Source: a virus
Reading direction: 5' to 3' (one strand)
IMG/VR virus record: IMGVR_UViG_3300025154_000064
Coordinates: 24,975 to 88,974 of that record
DNA: 64,000 bases
The translations under genes and the position numbers were made by a program. Below the pieces are notes generated by a model that was not told the origin of the DNA, did not search any database, and saw nothing but the letters and a program-made list of their open reading frames with translations. This document shows, piece by piece, positions 24,492 through 63,712 of the stretch. The number at the start of each line of letters is the position of its first letter. Positions within the stretch are counted from its first letter, which is position 1.

Positions 24492-24986
24492 TCACTTTTT
24501 ACCTTTTGGCTTCTTTGCGGGTACCTTATTGAGATTTAATTGAACAGGTTTCGGCTCCGGTTTAGGACCCGGTTCAACGACATCGACTTTGTTTTCAAGC
24601 AGAAGCTTTGGCATCTTTCTAATTGTATCCTCCGCCATTTCCTTCTGGCCCATGGCGACCGAGAGATTAATCATCCTGATAAAAGGTTCAAGGTTCGGGA
24701 ACATCTTCATTGCCTTTTCATCAAGCACTACATACTCGGTTACGGTAAAGTCGTCTTCTAATAAATCCTTTATGCCAACCCCTAGGACCTCAGCGATTCT
24801 GTTAAGCTCAGCACGTGTCGGTATGCATAAATTGTTTTTAATTTTTGCTATCCTAACGTTCGAATGTTTCAGCGGCTTTCTAACTCGATGCTTAGGGTCT
24901 TCGTAAACCATTTTCCCTAATTCGGTATCATCAATCCCCTCTCTTTCCTGTAATACCATAATTCGTTCACCAAGATTTAATTTCAT
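24492..24986 (-). CDS. XRE-family HTH repressor (cI-like)
   Basis: LGERIMVLQEREGI...PTRAELNRIAEVLGVGIKDLL; divergent from a cro-like gene. Confidence 0.75.
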   Translation of the reverse strand: MKLNLGERIMVLQEREGIDDTELGKMVYEDPKHRVRKPLKHSNVRIAKIKNNLCIPTRAELNRIAEVLGVGIKDLLEDDFTVTEYVVLDEKAMKMFPNLEPFIRMINLSVAMGQKEMAEDTIRKMPKLLLENKVDVVEPGPKPEPKPVQLNLNKVPAKKPKGKK

Positions 24987-52900: not shown

Positions 52901-55722
52901 CTTTCCTTTGACAGCATGACTAAGAGCGCGTTGATGTGAAGCGCTTCGTGGTATTCCTCATCGGTAAAAAACGGATTATCCATAAACGTTCTCCCATGGG
53001 TCTGGCTCCGATTCAATTTCTTCAATCTTGATCCCGGTTAGTGTGAAGATATCAGCCCACTCGAACCCGCACCTATGGCAGTGTACGCCTTGAGAAATAT
53101 AGTCTCCACAATGGCTTGTACTCCCACTGTCTATATCAACGCTATAACACCGAGGACAATAGACGCCACCTTTGGCGAGATAATCTTCTTCCATTTTTTT
53201 ATAGTTCATTTCGGCAACCTCTCAATCCTGTTTTTAGCCTGGTCGAACTCGCATGGTGTCCAGCTGACAAGCTCTTCCTGTTCATCCACAGTCAAGCCGT
53301 CCAGGACCATTGCCATAAAAGGGTCGATCTCATGCGATCCCCAGAAGAAGTGTTGGTCTTGGGTTTTCATTCAAGCCTCCGGTCCTTTCGTGATGTCTAC
53401 CCGGTTGAAAGTGTAAATGTCGGTCCATTGCGATCCGCAATCGTCGCAATTCGCATCCTGGGTGACCTCGTTCATTCCCATTTCAAGGCAACCATAGGTA
53501 ATATCTGACGTTCCACACACTGGACAAGTTTCAGGTTCCATTCAAACCTCCAAAACACGGCTTTTGGCCTCATCGATATCTTCAGGTATGCTCGATCCGA
53601 TATCACTAAAGAGCTCCATATCGCCATAATATAAGCCATCGTAATAAATCAGATCTTCCACATATTTCAGTGATTTGTGCTGAAAGAATTTGTCGAGAGT
53701 GTGTATCCAACAAGCATAGGTAACCTGAACATTCTCAAACGGCCCGAAGAACGGCCCAGATGCACCCCAGGCATCCATGTCTTCGGTAACTGTTTTTCTT
53801 CCATGATAAAGATGTATATAAATTGCCATCACTCCCCCTCCTACCAGTCACACTGGTTCTGCCACGCGGCCTCATCCACCCGCTCGGCGATCATAATGGC
53901 GCACTCATCGCAGATTTCGCCTTCGTTGCACTCGTTCTCGCCGCAGAATTCGCAGATGGTCATAAGCACCCACCGCAGCACCCATGGGGCACGACTTCAT
54001 TAACCTTCTTGAGAACTTCTACCCTCAAATCAAACGGAAAACCGGCCGGCCATGGATGAATTTTCCACTCGCCCTTGGCTATATGATAGTCTCCATAACC
54101 AGCATTAATGGTACGTCCACCAGATACAAGGCAGTCACCAAACTCCCACACACAGCCATTGATAGTTACGATCAGGTTTCCATCGCAAAGCTTTGGCCAT
54201 GCCCCATCATAGTTGATCTCAATCATCGGTCCCCCTTTGGTAGCCTGCACGGAAAGTCACTCTTGAATAGCGTCGAGAAGCCGGCCTGAAGCGTTTGAGG
54301 TATCACGCTACCCACATTTCCCTTCTCTTTCCATGGACCGTATTTGTAACCATACCGCGTTTTATCTTGAAATCTCATGAACAAAACGCCATCGCTTCTT
54401 ATCGCGGCCTGGATCAAGCCATGTATCCCGCCGGCGTATTTGGCTAAGACTTTCATCGAACCTCCTTAACCCAGAAAAGTGTGCCACATAGGATGCACCG
54501 ATGGCGGGATACCTCGAACACTTCATCCGGAATAAAGAAATCGAAATCCCATATCCCAACATTAACGCTTTCTCTGTTTATCTCAATCGCATCGCCACCG
54601 CATTTAGGACAGTTCATGCCGCCTCTCTTTCTGCATCTGACCATGCATCCAACATGTTGACGATACCCTCCAGCGCTCTCCTCGCATCAGACGTCATATC
54701 GCCGCCGGCACAGACCTCTCCAAGAATAAGCCGCTGCTCTTCAAGGTAATCCACATTCACGTTTTCGAAGGTGATAGCACGGTGTTTGGGAATGATAATG
54801 GACCGAGCGTTGACGGTTGTTCCCAAACCAGGCGCCGGTCGAAGCGTTTCGCTGAAAGCCTCCCACTCTTCCTGAGTCGGAACAGATAGGTTATATTTCT
54901 TTTCATTACCCGATGCCAGCCATCCTGAGCAATAATCGCCATGCTTCAGGATGAGATAGAACGCATCTGGGTAGTCGGAAGGTGGTTGCCATATTTTGGA
55001 CATGCCTTTCTTGCGGTCCATAATTTTTGTGCAAGCAGTGCACCATGGTTCACAGTCACCAAAGGCAGCCGCTCTTTTCCCGCACTTCGGACATTCCCAG
55101 GCTGGCGCGTAAATATACTCACCCTTAATGTGGCAATCCACAACACACCCGGGATCGCCCGCCGTCATCCGGACAGAAAAACGAGCGTTGCATTTGTCGC
55201 AATAGATGGCCGCGTGCGATACAGAGGTGAATTTCGAGTGCCCACATACCGGGCAGGTTAAGGCGTCCCACTCGAACGGGTTGAATCCGCCGATGTTCTC
55301 GATACAGAATGTCATACCCCCACCTCCGCATCTTCCAGCGCACGACGTCGCGCTACCAATGCCAGAGTCAACGGCTCGATCTGCTCCCGGCACCACAGCT
55401 TCGCCATCATTTCGGCCAAAAACCATGTCTGTGCGCTGAAAGTTTTCTCCATCACACGAACACCCGGGAAAACTTTCTCCCGTTAGCCCCACATCGAGTG
55501 AAGCGGGTGGCCGCCAATAAGAACGCGCTCTCCAAACCGCAATGATTCATGAAGCTGAAGGTTTTCGTCAGCAGGTAGGCACACAGCGCCGGTAACGGTT
55601 ACCAGATCACCAAGGATTGGCTTCTGTTGGCCTAAGCGGTCGGTTGTAAGCCGGGCGTGAAGGTCGTTCCCAAGTTTTACGGATATTAATCTCATGCTAT
55701 TCCTCCTTAAATTCGGTTCCAA
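49902..55722 (-). other. Cluster of small leftward hypothetical genes, many with zinc ribbons (e.g. 49902..50186, 50186..50941, 50938..51264, 51249..51614, 51604..52269, 52451..52735, 52738..52984, 52976..53209, 53371..53541, 53542..53832, 53960..54226, 54223..54456, 54453..54617, 54614..55315, 55483..55695)
   Basis: Contiguous, translationally coupled ORFs; no family recognised with confidence. Starts approximate. Confidence 0.6.
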
Positions 55723-56224
55723 ATATTATTTTAAAGTGGATAGCCTGCTTTTCCCTTGCGGCATCCCTTGCGGCATCCCTTGCGGCATCCCTTGCGGCAG
55801 CCCATGCGGCATCCCTTGCGGCATCCCTTGCGGCAGCCCTTGCGGCATCCCATGCGGCATCCCTTGCGGCAGCCCATGCGGCAGCCCATGCGGCAGCCAA
55901 CTCTTCTTCTGAAGCTTCACCGTGTGCAAAAAGGTGCACAGTTCTCACAGCGTCACGGCTTCTTTTATCTTCCATGAGATGCAAAATATCCTGACAACAA
56001 GCCACGGCAAAGAGTCTGTATCTCTTCGCAATATCATCCCCTTCGAGTGCCGATTTGGGGACCCATAACACATCGTTAAGCCCATTAATTTCCAGAATCT
56101 TTACAAGCTGGATGGGTGTCTCGTCTTTAAACCCTCTACCAAGACCTTTCTTCAGATGCTTGTAGCGTTCGGTGCAGGCTTTCGCCTCTCGCAATTTCTT
56201 TAATGTCGTGTAGGGTATCATCAA
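55697..56224 (-). CDS. Phage protein with Ala-rich tetrapeptide repeats (AAWA/AARD)
   Basis: N-terminal LKKLREAKACTERY..RLFAVAC; C-terminal (AA[W/R][A/D])n. Confidence 0.8.
   Translation of the reverse strand: MMIPYTTLKKLREAKACTERYKHLKKGLGRGFKDETPIQLVKILEINGLNDVLWVPKSALEGDDIAKRYRLFAVACCQDILHLMEDKRSRDAVRTVHLFAHGEASEEELAAAWAAAWAAARDAAWDAARAAARDAARDAAWAAARDAARDAARDAAREKQAIHFKIIFGTEFKEE
55753..55898. repeat. 12-bp coding tandem repeat CCC(T/A)TGCGGCA(T/G), about 12 copies
   Basis: Directly visible; encodes the tetrapeptide repeat. Confidence 0.95.
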
Positions 56225-57181: not shown

Positions 57182-57334
57182 TGGTACGCAAGAACCATCT
57201 GTGGTTAAAAGCTGAAGTGGCTCGCATACGAATCCTGTGTTTGAAATACTTCTTGGCTCGCAATTTAATCATGTGGCTAAAAGCGTTTTTGGCTCGCATT
57301 CGGATACTGTGTTTAATTATTCATCTGGCTGTCA
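57182..57334 (-). ncRNA. TIGR-like dual-repeat guide array, segment 4 (4 units of 36 nt)
   Basis: Plus strand: TGGCTCGCA-like at 57182, 57218, 57254, 57290, 57326, alternating with TGTGTTTAA-like at 57200, 57236, 57272, 57308; all spacers 9 nt and unique. Confidence 0.88.
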
Positions 57335-57338
57335 AACA

Positions 57339-57989
57339 TCAATTAACCATAGGCTGCACTGGCCGCCCGGCTGGCGCAACCGCCATGCCAACGTCGTAAG
57401 CTGTCTTGGCCGCAATCAATGCCGCCTTCAACTTTTTGATTTGCTCGTGCTGCTCAATGATGGTCCGCTCTTGTTCGGCGATGATCTCATCCTTCTGCGA
57501 GAGCTGCCTCATCAGGCTTTCAACCGTCGGTTTGGCGACCACTGGTTCCTCGCGCTTGGCCTTCAGTTCCGGCTTCTCGTGCTTTGCGATGACCTTCTCG
57601 ACAAGCGCCGGCGTGACTTTCTCAATTGGAACAGATGCCAAGTCGTTAAAGACTTTTTCTTTTCCGACGGCGCCACACCGATGGTGCGCTGCAATTGGGA
57701 TAGACGGACCATACTTCACAGCCTCGACTGGTGCGCCGATAAAGGCGAGCTTGAGGTCACCGTACCGGCCTGGGGAAAGGTCGAACATGGTTTTCACATA
57801 TTCGTTAAAGGATGCGTTCTTAAATCTCGGGTTTTCCCTGAAGCGCTTGGTGTAATCCAAGTAATACAACGCACGGATGAAATTCTTCTGGTGCCTCAGC
57901 TCAAGAATTTTCTCACGTGCCGCTTCGGTTTCGATCTGGGTAATGGATCTGGTGTCATACTTTTTTTTCAATTCTTCGATAGCTTGCAT
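57339..57989 (-). CDS. Uncharacterised protein nested between array segments (helical N-terminus, C-terminal coiled coil)
   Basis: 216 aa, RBS AAAGGA; NASFNEYVKTMFDLSPGRY is HTH-like; heptad-rich C-terminus. Confidence 0.8.
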   Translation of the reverse strand: MQAIEELKKKYDTRSITQIETEAAREKILELRHQKNFIRALYYLDYTKRFRENPRFKNASFNEYVKTMFDLSPGRYGDLKLAFIGAPVEAVKYGPSIPIAAHHRCGAVGKEKVFNDLASVPIEKVTPALVEKVIAKHEKPELKAKREEPVVAKPTVESLMRQLSQKDEIIAEQERTIIEQHEQIKKLKAALIAAKTAYDVGMAVAPAGRPVQPMVN

Positions 57990-58014
57990 TGTTTTTTTCC
58001 TTTTTTGGGTTTGG

Positions 58015-58312
58015 GGTGACGCATTGGCAAATTGTGTTTAAATGGAACCCTGGCTCGCAAAATGATGATGTGCCTAATCCAAAGTTTGACTCGCAATAAT
58101 TTTCTGTGTTTAACTTTCCAGCTGGCTCGCATCCTCAAGCTGTGTTTAAAAAAAATAGATGGCTCGCAACCTCGGATCGTGTTTAATTTTGGCGCTGGCT
58201 CGCAAACGTTTTTTGTGATTAATCGTGAAAATGGCTCGCAAAGTACCAATAGGGTTAATCTTCATAATGGCTTGCAGGTTCATTGTGTGTTTAACCGGAA
58301 CAGTGGCTTCCC
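58015..58312 (-). ncRNA. TIGR-like dual-repeat guide array, segment 3 (8 units)
   Basis: Edge repeats at 58015, 58051, 58087, 58123, 58160, 58196, 58232, 58268, 58304; loop repeats at 58033, 58069, 58105, 58141, 58178, 58214, 58250, 58286. One spacer is 10 nt (A-run). Confidence 0.92.
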
Positions 58313-58348: not shown

Positions 58349-59206
58349 TTATGCCTCTACCAACTCTTCCACCTCAACCTCGATATCTTTCTTAAAATAA
58401 AACGGCTCGATAATCCCGGTATGTCCCAAGATCGTCCCAGCATAAGGCTCGCTGACCGGCTTCCCGTCAAGCGTCCGCGCGACGGTCCAGAAGTGGGACA
58501 AAAATAACTTCACCGTCTCGTGCTTCGCCATGTTTAAACGATGGCCTTTGGTGGCGTCCGGATGGGTCCGTTCACGTTTTCGCTTGGAAGCTTCCAGGAA
58601 GGTTTTATACTGTTCGTCTGCCGGATGCCGGTTAACCTGTTCGCCAAAGTGATAGGTAACTACCCGGCCGCGGCTCGACCAGTCCGAGACGGTTCCTTTC
58701 TTTCGCTTCGGCATCTTCCCGTCAATGACGTGCCGCCCCATGTAATGCCACCACCCGGAAATATTGGCGAAATCCTTCTCTTCAATGGCATGATGGGTGT
58801 GGCCTTCGCCCTTGGCGCTCTTCTGGCAAGTCGAGCACCAGAAGGTGTTGAAAGATTTGCCTTCCTCCTCGACAGCTTTCTTCTCAAGTTTAGTGCCGCA
58901 CTTCTCGCACACCGGCGTGAAGCGGTAATAATAGAGCAGGACCAAATTCCCGGCGATGAAAGGGCCGGCACCAGGGACGTGCTTCAGCCACTCGGTCCAG
59001 ACCGGATAAAATTCGAGGTCCTTTTCGATGTTCCGGGACAGCTTGCCTTTAATACTTTCCAGATTCTTTATGAGGTCCTGGTGTTTCTCGCTGGCATCAG
59101 GGTTCATCGACCCGAGCCGGTTTTTCGTCGAAACGAGCATCTTGCAAAGGTCATCATAGGTCCTGCAATTGAAGCTTAAATTTCTTACTACCATTTCGTC
59201 TATCAT
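58349..59206 (-). CDS. Nop/IS110-C-terminal-like RNA-binding protein (TasA-like) with a CxxC-x20-CxxC insertion
   Basis: 285 aa from ATG 59206 (RBS AAAGGA). Coiled-coil N-terminus; WLKHVPGAGPFIAGNL; DFANISGWWHYMG; KRKKGTVSDWS; GHRLNMAK..KLFLSHFW..R..DGKPVSEPY..LGH. No DEDD/RuvC domain. Confidence 0.85.
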   Translation of the reverse strand: MIDEMVVRNLSFNCRTYDDLCKMLVSTKNRLGSMNPDASEKHQDLIKNLESIKGKLSRNIEKDLEFYPVWTEWLKHVPGAGPFIAGNLVLLYYYRFTPVCEKCGTKLEKKAVEEEGKSFNTFWCSTCQKSAKGEGHTHHAIEEKDFANISGWWHYMGRHVIDGKMPKRKKGTVSDWSSRGRVVTYHFGEQVNRHPADEQYKTFLEASKRKRERTHPDATKGHRLNMAKHETVKLFLSHFWTVARTLDGKPVSEPYAGTILGHTGIIEPFYFKKDIEVEVEELVEA

Positions 59207-59282
59207 GCTGTTTTTCCTTTGTTGTTTTGCCGTAATAGTACGGCGGTTACAGAGTTGGTGCCGCAAAAGCGCGGCGGTTTTT

Positions 59283-59363
59283 GGTTAAGCATTTCCTATT
59301 TGTGTTTTAAAAGGAAAATGGCTCGCAAGACATTAATGTATTCAATTTTCAAAATAGCTCGAA
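59283..59363 (-). ncRNA. TIGR-like array, segment 2 (2 degenerate units)
   Basis: ..GCA-TTTCCTATT-TGTGTTTTA-AAAGGAAAA-TGGCTCGCA-AGACATTAA-TGTATTCAA-TTTTCAAAA-TAGCTCGAA keeps the 9-nt register. Confidence 0.7.
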
Positions 59364-59466: not shown

Positions 59467-59483
59467 CTTTCCACCTCATGATA

Positions 59484-59726
59484 TTTGTTTAACCGATTCA
59501 GTTGCTCGCACTGGCAAGTTGTGTTTAAAATCAAACCTGGCTCGCAAGCTGGGTATGTGTTTAAAGAACGTCCTGGCTCGCAAGCCTGATCTGTGTTTAA
59601 TAAGGACAATGGCTCGCACAACAAGCCTGTGTTTAACGGCCGGAATGGCTCGCAATTGCTTTTTGTGTTTAATTTCATGGCTGGCTCGCAATCTGTTTCT
59701 GTGTTTAATCGAAACTTTGGCTTATC
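59484..59726 (-). ncRNA. TIGR-like dual-repeat guide array, segment 1 (6 complete units plus a half unit)
   Basis: Edge repeats at 59502, 59538, 59574, 59610, 59646, 59682, 59718; TGTGTTTAA at 59520, 59556, 59592, 59628, 59664, 59700; exact 36-nt period. Confidence 0.95.
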
Positions 59727-60449: not shown

Positions 60450-61895
60450 TTAAGGTTTTTCCTTCGGTCTTACGGTAAGGTTCGGCTTAAAATAGACGCT
60501 CGCGCCGAGCTTCCTTGAATCTTTTAGAAGGTTCTCGACCCATTCCCATTCGGGTTGGGATTCCAGTCCGCGACTATTACGGCTTCTGCCACCAACAATC
60601 ACCCAATCGACTCTGAAGTCACTCTTCAAGGTAATGGGTTCAAGCATAGGTTCACATGACAGGAAGAGAATGTTGTCGATATCTTTAATTTTCTCGAAAG
60701 CCACGCCGGCCGAATCAGCTCTTGCCTGCGTATCGGCTGTTGCACCCAGCAAACAGTTCTTCGGAAACTCAAAGTCGGCATAGCGTGCCGGGTTTTTCGT
60801 GAGGAATAAAAAATTCCATTGCGGGTTTTCGCCAACAACTGTCAGCACGCTTTCGATCCACTCATCCGGCACCCAAGGGCCAAACAGGTCAGCCATGCTG
60901 CAAACGAAGACATTGTTATCCAGCACGCCCGGGGGGACTGGCGTATTCGCCGCCGCGCACAGCCTTTCCGGGTGAAACGTAGGCTCAAATGTGCCATCGA
61001 ATCTCATGCCGATATCGTAGGCATAACAATACTCGCACCCATATTTACATCCGGTTACCGGGTTCCACGAATATTTGGCCCACTCGATATTTCCATTGGT
61101 GACGTTGAATTTCGATGTCGATCTTGTTATCTCTTTCTCTTTAATTTCCTGCATTGCCGCGTTAATGGTCTTGGCGCCTGCCTTAACCTCCTCGGCAATT
61201 TCTGGATCAGCTTTTTCGATAGCCTTCGCCATACCGACCATCTTCCCGGAAACGCCTACGGTTTTCGCGGCCTGCTCGCGGGATTCGTTCTCGTGCCGTT
61301 TCTTTGTGAGGTCTTCAAGCCAATTCGTTTTTGACGGGTATGGTTCCGGTTCTGGCTTTTTCTTGGCTATTGATTTAAGCCAGTCATCGCTTCCGGGGTT
61401 TGGTTCCTGTTCCTGATTTTTAGGTTGCGGAATAACCCAAGGCTCTTTGGGTTTTATAACCGCTTCCGGAAAATCTTCCGGAAGCGGTTTGCTGCCATAC
61501 ATACCTGGTCCGCTTGTAGCCTGCCGATCCTTAGCCATCGCCGCATACATCTTCTCCACCTCGATAGCCAGGAACGCCCTCTGACTCTGGTTCAGGTGCC
61601 GGCGGTTCAAGTTTTCCGAAAGGACATAGGCGATCGGATCTACCGGATTAAATTCCTCGATACGCACGTCATTTTCAACATCAATTGACGCGCATAGCCT
61701 ATTCCGGCCATCTATCAGCAGTCCGGCAGATGTAACCCGTGCCGGATGAAGGAAGCCGTTTTTCCTGACATCTTCCACCAAGGCCAAATATTCTTCATCG
61801 CTCATCATCGGCATTAAGTTCGCCGCCGGATGTACCCCAGCCAGATCATAGAGTCGAACAGCTTCTTCTAATTTTTCTTTGAAATTTATTGGCAT
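60450..61895 (-). CDS. ParB/Srx-like domain fused to a DUF5131 (phage Gp37/Gp68, three-Cys) domain
   Basis: N-terminus HPAANLMP..LIDGRNR..SENLNRRHL; C-terminus IEWAKYSWNPVTGCKYGCEYCYA, VFVCSMADLF, LTKNP, LSCEP, WVIVGG. Confidence 0.9.
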   Translation of the reverse strand: MPINFKEKLEEAVRLYDLAGVHPAANLMPMMSDEEYLALVEDVRKNGFLHPARVTSAGLLIDGRNRLCASIDVENDVRIEEFNPVDPIAYVLSENLNRRHLNQSQRAFLAIEVEKMYAAMAKDRQATSGPGMYGSKPLPEDFPEAVIKPKEPWVIPQPKNQEQEPNPGSDDWLKSIAKKKPEPEPYPSKTNWLEDLTKKRHENESREQAAKTVGVSGKMVGMAKAIEKADPEIAEEVKAGAKTINAAMQEIKEKEITRSTSKFNVTNGNIEWAKYSWNPVTGCKYGCEYCYAYDIGMRFDGTFEPTFHPERLCAAANTPVPPGVLDNNVFVCSMADLFGPWVPDEWIESVLTVVGENPQWNFLFLTKNPARYADFEFPKNCLLGATADTQARADSAGVAFEKIKDIDNILFLSCEPMLEPITLKSDFRVDWVIVGGRSRNSRGLESQPEWEWVENLLKDSRKLGASVYFKPNLTVRPKEKP

Positions 61896-62683
61896 GACCG
61901 TTCCTTTTTGGTTAGAAAAAGCGTGTCTATAAGCTGACCAAAAGCGCCACCTGCTTCTCTATATCGAGCACGATCATGGCTTTTTTTAGCGCCAATCTGC
62001 CAATACAGAAATGCGTTATCGACATCTTCGCCATACCGGCCGGTTTCCATCCATTTCGTTGGTCCGGTTATCAGGTAGGCCCATTGCGCATCATCTCCAC
62101 GAAGCGAAACAAGCATTGCATCGTGCCATTCAGGAAGCCACGTCAATATATCCTCAACATGATCATACCATTCGCGCCTTTTCTCTATCGAAAGACGCTT
62201 CAAGCCGCCAACATTACAGCCGAGCGTGGTGAGAGTGGTCGTATATATCGGCGCAGATTCGAGAAGTTTTCTCGTTAACGGCCAGTCTTTAATCGAGTTT
62301 GGGTCGGAATGGATAAAAGCTATTGAGTTTTCCGGTGGGTTGTTAGGGAATCGGCACAAATCAAGAGCGTTAACATTTAGCGCATTCTTGAAACTGCCTG
62401 AAAGTGTTGCGAATGTTATCGGATCTTTTTCGATAAAGAATGCGTCGCACTCGACGTTCCTGTCTTTCATAAATGCCAAATGCTTGCTAAGTATTTGCGG
62501 ACTTGAAATTCTCGAATGATACGACGGTAAACCATCCCCAGCGCACAAATCAAGAATAGTGTATTGCCTCCTCATAGTGCTGCCGAGCTTACCAATTGCC
62601 AGCATCCCGGCTTCTCGACCCACAAGTTTGTTCAACAAAACGTGTTTTCCAAGAGTTCGATTTTTACTGCTTCCTACTGCCAT
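61886..62683 (-). CDS. Three-Cys-motif partner (TcmP-like) SAM-dependent methyltransferase-fold protein
   Basis: TLGKHVLL, ILDLCAGDG, SSP, FIEKD, FIHSDP; adjacent to the DUF5131 gene. Confidence 0.75.
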   Translation of the reverse strand: MAVGSSKNRTLGKHVLLNKLVGREAGMLAIGKLGSTMRRQYTILDLCAGDGLPSYHSRISSPQILSKHLAFMKDRNVECDAFFIEKDPITFATLSGSFKNALNVNALDLCRFPNNPPENSIAFIHSDPNSIKDWPLTRKLLESAPIYTTTLTTLGCNVGGLKRLSIEKRREWYDHVEDILTWLPEWHDAMLVSLRGDDAQWAYLITGPTKWMETGRYGEDVDNAFLYWQIGAKKSHDRARYREAGGAFGQLIDTLFLTKKERSCQ

Positions 62684-62724
62684 TTCCACCCCCATTGTGA
62701 AAGTTTCGGTTCAAAATTTCTTCC

Positions 62725-62768
62725 ACAATGGGATAAAATTGAATTTCTGTCAAGATAAAATTGAAGTT
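62725..62768 (-). promoter_or_regulatory. Leftward sigma70-like promoter with two operator-like half sites
   Basis: AACTTCAATTTTATC-TTGACA-GAAATTCAATTTTATCC-CATTGT; 19/20 identical to 25021-25040. Confidence 0.65.
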
Positions 62769-62782
62769 GGGTGTATTTTTTT

Positions 62783-63712
62783 TCAGGCCGCCTTTGCTCT
62801 CGCAGCTTTGTATCCCAAAAGCTCACTATCCAGCCGTGCGGAAATTTTCTTCATACTCTTGATAACGTCCTCAATTTCCGTAATGCGCCGGCTGTTACAA
62901 TTCACCAACAACCCGGCCTTGTCATCGGCAAAGGGTGTTTCCCGGAATTTCGCCATAGCGGCAAAGAGCTGGCTGAAGGCGGATTTGGCCAGTGCTTTGT
63001 CTTTGTTTGTTTCCACCGGTTTAGCCTTATCCAGAAGGCTCAACTGGGCCTCTTTTTCAAGGAACACTTCTATGTGTTTCAACATGCTGGCAACATCTTT
63101 TCCGCGCCGTGACACATCATAGCATTTCATAACCCGGCTCGGCTTCACAGTGGCCAGTTTTCTGGCAACCGCTTTAGGCAACCGGCCAGCGTCAAATTCG
63201 CGTAGCAAAATTTCGGGCAAGCCAAGTATCGGCAAATCGGCTTTGAGTGTCGTCAACGAAGTCCCAAATGCCTTGGCGCAAGTTTCCAAAGGAATGCAAT
63301 GGACGTTGACGGCCTTGTCGATCGCCTTGAGAGTTTCCAAAGCTCCCATATCCTTCCGAACGGCGTTATCCATGATCTGGTCCACAAAAATGTCACCATC
63401 AGTCTCTTCTGAATAGTCACAGATCTTCGCTTCGATTTCCAAGCCATCATCACCGGCACGGAAACCTTCCCTTTCGCTACCATCCCAGTACATATTCACA
63501 TACAGGGACACCGCCGTATAACGACATTCCCCATTGACTATCCAGTACCGACCAGGAATGTCCGGGTTTTCTCTTACATGAATTGGGTTCTTTAGACCCC
63601 TTTCCGCAATAGAGACGGCCAGTTCATCCCGCAGGTATTCCACGGGTTTGGTTTTTCGTGGTTGATGAATATCCGGGTCGATCGCGCTGATTTTAATGAA
63701 TTGAGTTGCCAT
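62783..63712 (-). CDS. ParB/Spo0J-family protein
   Basis: HQPRK..LAVSIAERGLKNPIHVR..IVNGECRY..DNAVRKDM, followed by an HTH. Confidence 0.9.
   Translation of the reverse strand: MATQFIKISAIDPDIHQPRKTKPVEYLRDELAVSIAERGLKNPIHVRENPDIPGRYWIVNGECRYTAVSLYVNMYWDGSEREGFRAGDDGLEIEAKICDYSEETDGDIFVDQIMDNAVRKDMGALETLKAIDKAVNVHCIPLETCAKAFGTSLTTLKADLPILGLPEILLREFDAGRLPKAVARKLATVKPSRVMKCYDVSRRGKDVASMLKHIEVFLEKEAQLSLLDKAKPVETNKDKALAKSAFSQLFAAMAKFRETPFADDKAGLLVNCNSRRITEIEDVIKSMKKISARLDSELLGYKAARAKAA

Follow-up and report, generated by a model that had tools for sequence, protein, structure and literature searches.

The stretch of viral DNA analyzed here (positions 24,975 to 88,974 of IMG/VR record IMGVR_UViG_3300025154_000064; 64,000 nucleotides (nt), referred to below as the window) was that of a tailed temperate phage, with genes for tape measure, integrase, helicase and primase proteins present, and contained a locus that is a dual-repeat member of the TasA subtype within the TIGR-Tas family. 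The protein encoded by the tasA gene of this locus, designated P0001, was confirmed as a TasA-type Tas protein, i.e., one whose Nop core is joined to neither RuvC nor HNH, and carried within that core an insert with the features of a zinc ribbon. A first-pass annotation made from the sequence alone had read the gene as a nuclease-less, TasA-like protein with an extra zinc ribbon, and this core reading was borne out by sequence, fold, arrays and relatives. The locus is, in our judgment, probably a phage-borne dual-repeat TIGR-Tas effector that acts as a guide-directed DNA binder, with the ribbon located near the guide repeat or adjacent DNA. By analogy with described TasA proteins, it is very likely that P0001 itself is a guided binder of this type; contact of the ribbon with nucleic acid near box D, which was placed there by spacing arithmetic against the published description of PlTasA, is a plausible proposal held at slightly less than even confidence.

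Membership of P0001 in the Tas family was evident from comparisons of both sequence and structure. The best match in a phmmer search of PDB sequences was TaTasR (9mty_A, E 2.8e-28), in which query residues 15-91 aligned with chain residues 119-192 and query residues 146-273 with chain residues 199-323. The phmmer match to SpTasH was limited to 53 C-terminal residues of the query (216-268, E 0.0017). The NCBIfam model NF052498 (TIGR-Tas system RNA-guided endonuclease) matched P0001 with an E value of 9.4e-24 in two stretches split by the insert. An AlphaFold2 (AF2) model of P0001 (121 sequences), which had a predicted local distance difference test score (pLDDT) of 92.3 and a predicted template modelling score (pTM) of 0.88, opened with coiled-coil helices at residues 4-34 and 44-64 and continued into a Nop-type RNA-binding domain, as in solved Tas structures. 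This model matched 9mty in a Foldseek search (E 6.9e-11) and was superposed by VIA-align on TaTasR 9mty_B with a Z score of 21.7 (201 residues, 2.8 Å, chain residues 110-322, 31% identity) and on SpTasH 9w04_B with a Z score of 21.5 (220 residues, 3.3 Å, chain residues 62-309). The corresponding Z scores were 15.6-15.9 for IS621/ISCro4 and 7.5 for Nop5.

The structural alignments of TasR and TasH with P0001 took in solely the regions that follow the RuvC and HNH domains. No nuclease family was found in P0001 by searches of Pfam and NCBIfam, the former of which gave weak zinc-ribbon-type matches and one weak match to DUF447_C. Likewise, no nuclease family was found in ten longer members of the family (340-434 amino acids (aa)), and no nuclease-fused relatives of P0001, i.e., relatives of 500-2000 aa, were found. 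The first-pass annotation had the protein beginning at a coiled coil without an N-terminal DEDD/RuvC domain, in agreement with the modelled helix from residue 4 and the lack of any nuclease-domain alignment, and the open reading frame (ORF), the start and the motifs that it quoted were all found as given. The ATG codon at 59206 was preceded by AAGGAAA and coincided with the start residue of the closest homologues; therefore, a 20-codon-longer product from the TTG codon at 59266 is unlikely.

TaTasR (9mty), the best match in both sequence and structure, also resembles the present system in having a wedge loop of equal length, a UG...CCA edge repeat and 9-nt spacers but has an N-terminal RuvC domain (residues 1-108) that is absent from P0001. 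SpTasH (9w04, 9w03 and 21kl) shares the Nop core but has an N-terminal HNH domain, before chain residue 62, that P0001 lacks. The IS110 bridge-RNA recombinases IS621 and ISCro4 and archaeal Nop5 share the combination of a coiled coil and a Nop-type RNA-binding fold with P0001; the latter, in contrast, was without a DEDD/RuvC domain, a Tnp catalytic domain or fibrillarin or L7Ae partners, and its guide would come from arrays.

Three dual-repeat arrays with a period of 36 nt, all on the same strand as tasA, were identified at the locus, comprising 19 regular units together with one lone unit and one degenerate unit. These arrays have the alternating repeats and approximately 9-nt spacers of a TIGR array. 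The pattern GTTTAA-N10-GGCTCGCA occurred 17 times as opposed to 0.54 times expected, and this number was reached in none of 100 shuffled sequences; the remainder of the 88,974-bp contig contained no similar repeats. The edge repeat, UGCGAGCCA, begins with UG (box D) and ends with CCA (box C), and the center of the loop repeat is rich in A. Repeats of TasR have been described in the same terms, i.e., with a UG start, a CCA end and a loop repeat with an A-rich center (PMC12045711). Of 62 related loci, 56 had arrays on the same strand as tas, one had them on the opposite strand and in five none were detected. In the one related locus with both arrays and partner gene opposite to the tas match (L050), this match covers only residues 1-100 of the protein, and the disagreement in strand is therefore likely to reflect an inversion or an assembly break.

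From its sequence, P0001 appears to carry the self-processing Tyr/His loop of dual-repeat Tas proteins, the processing activity itself being putative. In the gap-free alignment of query residues 216-268 with SpTasH residues 250-302, Y255 corresponded to Y289 and H262 to H296, the two SpTasH residues reported in PMC13421893 to cut pre-tigRNA. Y255 was present in 119 and H262 in 109 of the 121 aligned sequences (i.e., the query and 120 homologues, as for all column counts given here). A Tyr/His pair at these positions is typical of dual-repeat systems, as noted in Xu 2026 (bioRxiv 10.64898/2026.09.09.750476). A second pair of aligned residues, Y185 and R181, corresponded to Y238 and K233 of TaTasR, respectively, which form the unwinding-junction pair in the description of that protein (bioRxiv 10.64898/2026.08.11.744272). 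The Y185 column was aromatic in 116 of 121 sequences (Tyr in 55, Phe in 53 and Trp in 8), and R181 was present in 118.

The insert spanned approximately 54 residues of P0001 (92-145), as opposed to six residues (193-198) in TaTasR, and was located early in the C-terminal Nop domain, after a helix-hairpin-helix-like helix (GAGPFIAGNL, residues 79-88) and before the helix leading into the wedge loop. Within and next to this region were CEKC (residues 100-103), 20 intervening residues, CSTC (124-127), GHTHH (135-139) and DFANISGWW (145-153). Thus, an insert was present at the site given in the first-pass annotation, but its size was slightly larger than the estimate of about 45 aa made there. In the AF2 model, the insert contained five beta strands (residues 94-99, 108-114, 117-124, 129-131 and 138-143) and no helices, with mean pLDDT values for 10-residue blocks of 81-97 across residues 91-150. 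Conservation of the four cysteines was far beyond chance, C100 being present in 120 and each of C103, C124 and C127 in all 121 sequences; G135 was also invariant (121/121). A strict CxxC...CxxC pattern matched 107 of the 121 sequences, and the exceptions sampled either had CxC as the first knuckle or, in a single sequence, His in place of Cys. Variants with a longer first knuckle also occurred. Weak Pfam matches across the 121 members were to assorted ribbons (Zn_ribbon_6 in 21, TFIIB in 20, DZR in 14 and zf-FPG_IleRS in 7). A search of the Atlas by structure indicated similarity of the insert to Zn_ribbon_6 clusters, with template modelling (TM) scores of 0.61 and 0.52, and an Atlas feature search with the insert gave no usable match. 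Both CxxC knuckles, conserved in relatives, were flanked by beta strands. These sequence and model features identify the insert as a generic C4 zinc ribbon, in the form of a rigid, lysine-rich beta module that defines the clade and is predicted to bind zinc.

A link to the zinc finger of Fpg/Nei proteins was considered and rejected. The best E value among members matching zf-FPG_IleRS was 3.4e-5, and matches of the query itself were weak (E 0.1 in Pfam, 0.026-0.046 in NCBIfam and 0.16 for PDB entry 8tjg, the last of these falling partly on the His tag of the chain). More members matched generic ribbons than zf-FPG_IleRS and the insert was therefore called a generic zinc ribbon.

The cysteines and the GHTHH motif could also be taken as a degenerate or cryptic nuclease of the HNH-like beta-beta-alpha-metal type, in which case P0001 would nick or cut DNA; indeed, CxxC pairs are frequent in HNH domains and three His residues occur immediately after the second knuckle of the insert. 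The His-rich motif noted in the first-pass annotation was present in P0001, but it was not a feature of the family: H136 and H138 were lineage-specific, being outside the four commonest residues at their respective columns, and the H139 column contained His in 73 of 121 sequences and Tyr or Phe in 40 (29 and 11, respectively). Moreover, the insert was all beta and lacked a conserved His/Asn/Asp set, the helix that follows it is part of the Nop core, and the 25 of 86 Pfam families listed for the 121 members were zinc-ribbon families, with no HNH family among them. HNH domains of actual relatives were found elsewhere in the chain. Thus, the HNH domain of TasH is N-terminal, SpTasH aligning with P0001 only from its residue 62 on, and the HNH-bearing relatives P0220 and P0250 have a classical CxxC..HH..CxxC motif at another location, with the GxGP motif of the Nop domain appearing only at residues 134-135. 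A cryptic nuclease is consequently extremely improbable, and the suggestion of a vestigial nuclease insertion in the first-pass annotation was not supported. The insert neither aligned with an ordinary Tas loop nor formed a canonical HNH site, the two outcomes that this annotation had named as contrary to its reading.

The position of the insert was not among the four named insertion sites of Tas proteins in Xu 2026 (tip, wedge, insertion 1 and insertion 2). Based on TaTasR segments given in the Methods of that preprint (wedge G210-K230, insertion 1 Q247-T249 and insertion 2 V267-S269; bioRxiv 10.64898/2026.09.09.750476), the end of the insert was 11 residues before the P0001 equivalent of the wedge (G157-S177). 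In the preprint on PlTasA (bioRxiv 10.64898/2026.08.11.744272), a small element designated hairpin B (L198-R209) ends 12 residues before hairpin A, the equivalent of the wedge, and the loop of hairpin B contacts a base of box D. The insertion site of the ribbon and that of hairpin B would thus be the same. Basic residues of the insert were also well conserved, including K109 (106 of 121), K129 (97), K132 (109), R/K140 (101) and K/R144 (120). The location of the ribbon at the chain position of PlTasA hairpin B, together with these conserved Lys and Arg residues, favors an enlarged contact with the guide repeat or adjacent DNA.

Cysteine-free inserts of approximately 40-50 aa were noted at the same site in distant Tas lineages (P0197, P0199, P0201, P0210, P0213, P0221 and P0267), and the sequences thus point to the Nop-domain loop that hosts the ribbon as a recurrent insertion hotspot. 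Such inserts, the rigid packing of the ribbon on the core (evident from the pLDDT values of residues 91-150 and the pTM of the model) and the common occurrence of zinc ribbons as structural inserts would all suit a pure structural brace, i.e., a plug that stabilizes the Nop domain and touches no RNA, DNA or partner. The conserved basic residues flank both knuckles, however, and the equivalent loop of PlTasA touches a box D base, both of which argue against this explanation; a brace alone is thus considered improbable.

In the mechanism favored here, TasA would dimerize through its coiled coil and the dimer would, by analogy, bind one 36-nt tigRNA, which TasA would itself cut from transcripts of its own arrays by means of Y255 and H262. 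Of the two 9-nt spacers of each tigRNA, A would pair with one strand of an 18-bp DNA site and B with the other. Since P0001 has no nuclease domain, the DNA would be expected to be bound without cleavage, and the outcome would be a block of transcription or replication or the marking of the site for a ParB-like partner. The ribbon would be an enlarged counterpart of the hairpin B loop of PlTasA and would add contacts to the box C/D repeats of the tigRNA or to nearby DNA. Guided binding of this kind has precedents among Tas proteins without an active nuclease: repression of transcription and binding of target DNA are described for MbTasA and for catalytically dead TasR (bioRxiv 10.64898/2026.09.09.750476), and PlTasA binds its targets (bioRxiv 10.64898/2026.08.11.744272). 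The option of a guided repressor or roadblock raised in the first-pass annotation fits this published work by analogy. The stem-loop proteins PlTasA, MbTasA and BlTasA resemble P0001 in being nuclease-less and are described as binding target DNA or repressing transcription, and PlTasA also has its small hairpin B beside box D; P0001 differs in being of the dual-repeat type, in keeping the Tyr/His loop and in having a 54-aa ribbon as opposed to a 12-aa hairpin.

Several observations weigh against this interpretation. The NF052498 score of P0001 was 84.6 bits, below the curated cut-off of 100. The loop repeat was of the form UU..ACA (UUAAACACA), as opposed to UG..CCA (UGAAACCCA) in most relatives. 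Positions 2 and 7 of the loop were thus U and A rather than the G and C of most relatives (TGAAACCCA), a difference consistent, at the level of sequence, with compensatory replacement of G-C by U-A in the pair formed by box D and box C, but the loop repeats of two relatives (L042 and L054) did not fit a simple pairing of positions 2 and 7. Convincing targets of the 21 spacer pairs were not found: the best match in the 88,974-bp contig was a single hit with 2 mismatches in 18 positions, which is near chance (approximately 0.15 expected by our own estimate), and 495 kb of related loci gave two matches with two mismatches each. By estimate, even exact 18-mers would match by chance in very large collections, and the same caution concerning short spacers appears in the Discussion of a 2026 preprint. 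For the ribbon, the proposed contact derives from spacing arithmetic relative to a published description, and the insertion site, judging from the sequences, tolerates varied additions, so that zinc as such may have a structural role alone.

The clade defined by the ribbon was sizeable and largely viral. In a collection clustered at 90% identity, 215 clusters with E values of 0.001 or less were found among 833 candidates, and the best 120 of these 215 had 44-89% identity to the query and 80-100% query coverage (at least 92% except for P0056 and P0109). A search of 1.84 billion representatives clustered at 50% identity gave 1140 matches at an E value of 0.001, 310 at 1e-10 and 65 at 1e-30. Of the 1140 50%-identity clusters that P0001 detected as query, 65 belonged to the zinc-ribbon clade. 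Among these 65, the four-ligand pattern fit 58, three were full-length proteins in which the knuckles varied or a loop was long and four were N-terminally truncated fragments. In most of the next 85 representatives, the GxGPxxA motif was separated from the WxYxG anchor by 17-18 residues, so that no insert was present. Related loci were located on IMG/VR viral contigs in 58 cases and in genome bins in 13, eight of the latter being full-length clade loci; the bin records named Desulfobacterales and other deltaproteobacterial bins, Smithella, a Pseudomonadota bin and Methanoperedens. One zinc-ribbon TasA relative of 390 aa (P0023) had a C-terminal domain resembling that of the RNA polymerase alpha subunit (alpha-CTD; PF03118, residues 323-377, 35 bits against a cut-off of 23.8), which hints at a link to transcription or additional DNA binding.

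A second conserved component of the locus was a partner gene, OrfX, which lies between two of the arrays with its stop codon 4 bp before the next edge repeat; the region of its ribosome-binding site (RBS) is A-rich (AAAGGAAAAA), the same as that of tasA. Homologues of OrfX were found beside tas in 55 loci by tblastn. Among 59 near-full zinc-ribbon tas loci, OrfX was present within 4 kb and on the same strand in 52 (downstream in 48 and upstream in 4). The OrfX sequences comprised 43 distinct ones, many of the loci thus being near-duplicates. Two of the seven loci without OrfX had less than 100 nt of downstream flank, and the other five, with full flanks, showed no OrfX at an E value of 1e-4. 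No tblastn match to OrfX was found in eight distant loci outside the clade (L055-L058, L067, L068, L070 and L071).

The AF2 model of OrfX (pLDDT 93) was all-helical with a C-terminal coiled coil. VIA-align matched 87-95 residues of the region from 29 to 141 to DNA-binding domains of ParB (6s6h_B, Z 6.0, 95 residues, 3.5 Å), KorB (8qa8, Z 5.5, and 1r71, Z 5.2) and Spo0J (1vz0, Z 5.1), scores that are middling for a helical domain. Foldseek found nothing in the PDB at an E value of 0.001 or less, and profile searches of Pfam and PDB sequences gave coiled-coil noise only, with no Pfam ParB family. Beta strands suggestive of the N-terminal CTPase domain of ParB were not present in the model. In Faure 2025 (PMC12045711), tasParB is described as operonized with tasA, with dual-repeat arrays between the genes. 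The present locus agrees with that TasA-TasParB system in having a solo coiled coil and Nop domain, 36-nt dual-repeat arrays that separate the two genes and flank them upstream and downstream, a ParB-like neighbor in the same operon direction and a phage context; it differs in that OrfX shows only a part resembling the ParB DNA-binding domain and a coiled coil. Matched by description, OrfX is probably tasParB and the locus of the TasA-TasParB subtype of Faure 2025, and assignment of the locus to that group of 2025 is very probable.

Recruitment of a partner was among the options raised in the first-pass annotation, and the conserved OrfX is a ParB-like neighbor. The association of OrfX with the clade raises the question of whether the ribbon might serve as a dock for this ParB/KorB-like protein, such that guide-bound TasA would place or nucleate OrfX at an RNA-specified site for silencing, partition or exclusion. 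The clade and OrfX do travel together (52 of 59 clade loci as opposed to 0 of 8 non-clade loci), the N-terminal domain of OrfX resembles ParB and KorB DNA-binding domains and the operon described in Faure 2025 has the same pairing. Co-occurrence is, however, the signal of a single clade and does not demonstrate that the proteins touch, the insert presents a conserved basic face that suits nucleic acid at least equally well, five fully flanked clade loci were without OrfX and the fold match was middling. Prediction of a TasA-OrfX complex gave a score of 0.00 in both runs, which, as no controls were included, speaks neither for nor against binding. Docking of OrfX on the ribbon is accordingly regarded as unlikely, though less so than a pure brace. 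A further and distinctly doubtful extension is that the ribbon couples a two-protein, RNA-programmed centromere or silencer, in which TasA would find the 18-bp site and hand it to a ParB/KorB-like partner that spreads on or bridges DNA. If this were true, guide RNA, in place of a fixed parS or operator, would determine which host or rival-element loci the phage silences, partitions or excludes.

Coordinates of the tas locus features are listed in Table 1.

Table 1. Coordinates in the window of tasA, its partner gene, coding segments of interest and TIGR arrays.
Feature	Positions	Strand	Description
tasA gene	58349..59206	-	285 aa (P0001); coiled-coil dimerization hairpin and Nop-type C-terminal domain, without a nuclease domain
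Zinc-ribbon insert, codons 92-145	58772..58933	-	CEKC-x20-CSTC, then KGEG; delimited by alignment gap, AF2 strands and Cys conservation
C-terminal loop with Y255 and H262, codons 250-270	58397..58459	-	Putative metal-independent tigRNA-processing dyad
TIGR array upstream of tasA	59475..59726	-	7 units: edge TGCGAGCCA / spacer A, 9 nt / loop TTAAACACA / spacer B, 9 nt; first edge 5'-truncated
One degenerate and one intact lone unit	59292..59363	-	Separating the upstream array from the tasA start
TIGR array between tasA and partner gene	58015..58312	-	8 units (58312-58024), one with a 10-nt spacer A, and a terminal partial edge repeat
Partner gene OrfX	57339..57989	-	216 aa; helical ParB/KorB-like DNA-binding domain (approximately 29-141) and C-terminal coiled coil (156-203)
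TIGR array downstream of partner gene	57182..57334	-	4 units (57334-57191), closed by an edge repeat TGCGTACCA, with a hairpin after it

Additional features were noted within and around the locus. Spacer A of the lone unit (TTTTCCTTT, unit 59292-59327) showed perfect complementarity to the A-rich stretch at the RBS of the partner gene (57995-58004). Self-targeting or autoregulation by the lone unit was nevertheless set aside as a low-complexity coincidence because the paired 18-nt site at this RBS region had four mismatches. Two similar GC-rich hairpins (TGCCGTAATAGTACGGCGGTT and TGCCGCAAAAGCGCGGCGGTT) were present at 59228-59279, between the lone unit and the tasA start codon, without a U tract on the minus strand; these may be a processing or attenuation element. 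Scans of the region around the locus with Rfam and for promoters and terminators gave nothing above chance. Upstream of the locus, three genes on the minus strand (60450-63712) encode a ParB-like N-domain (phrog_12047, E 5e-13) fused to DUF5131 (PF07505, E 3e-34), a protein of 269 aa with no family match and a ParB_N protein (PF02195, E 6e-9), respectively. This cassette was considered to lie outside the conserved Tas module because only DUF5131 matched related loci, and that once (L067). On the other side, a 12-nt tandem repeat at 55752-55895 (12 copies, 92% matches) lies in an ORF at 55697-56224 on the minus strand and encodes a repeat of the AARDAAW type; the ORF product matched phrog_18326 (function unknown) with an E value of 4e-38.

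What is new relative to the published main texts is the zinc ribbon itself, present in a dual-repeat TasA protein at an unlisted insertion site. Neither "zinc" nor "ribbon" occurs in the main texts of Faure 2025, Xu 2026, the PlTasA preprint or the TasH paper in Nucleic Acids Research, which likewise make no mention of cysteines in Tas proteins, while the supplements of Faure 2025 and Xu 2026 may show the clade or the ribbon. A literature search for TasA, tigRNA and zinc together gave only one general review.

TIGR-Tas systems are new (2025) and are under development as compact DNA-targeting tools that are free of a protospacer-adjacent motif (PAM). Should the ribbon merely add RNA contacts, the finding would be a modest structural footnote. 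The clade provides a natural test of the effect of an accessory module on the handling of guide and target by a nuclease-free effector, and it may reveal the role of the unexplained pairing of TasA with ParB.

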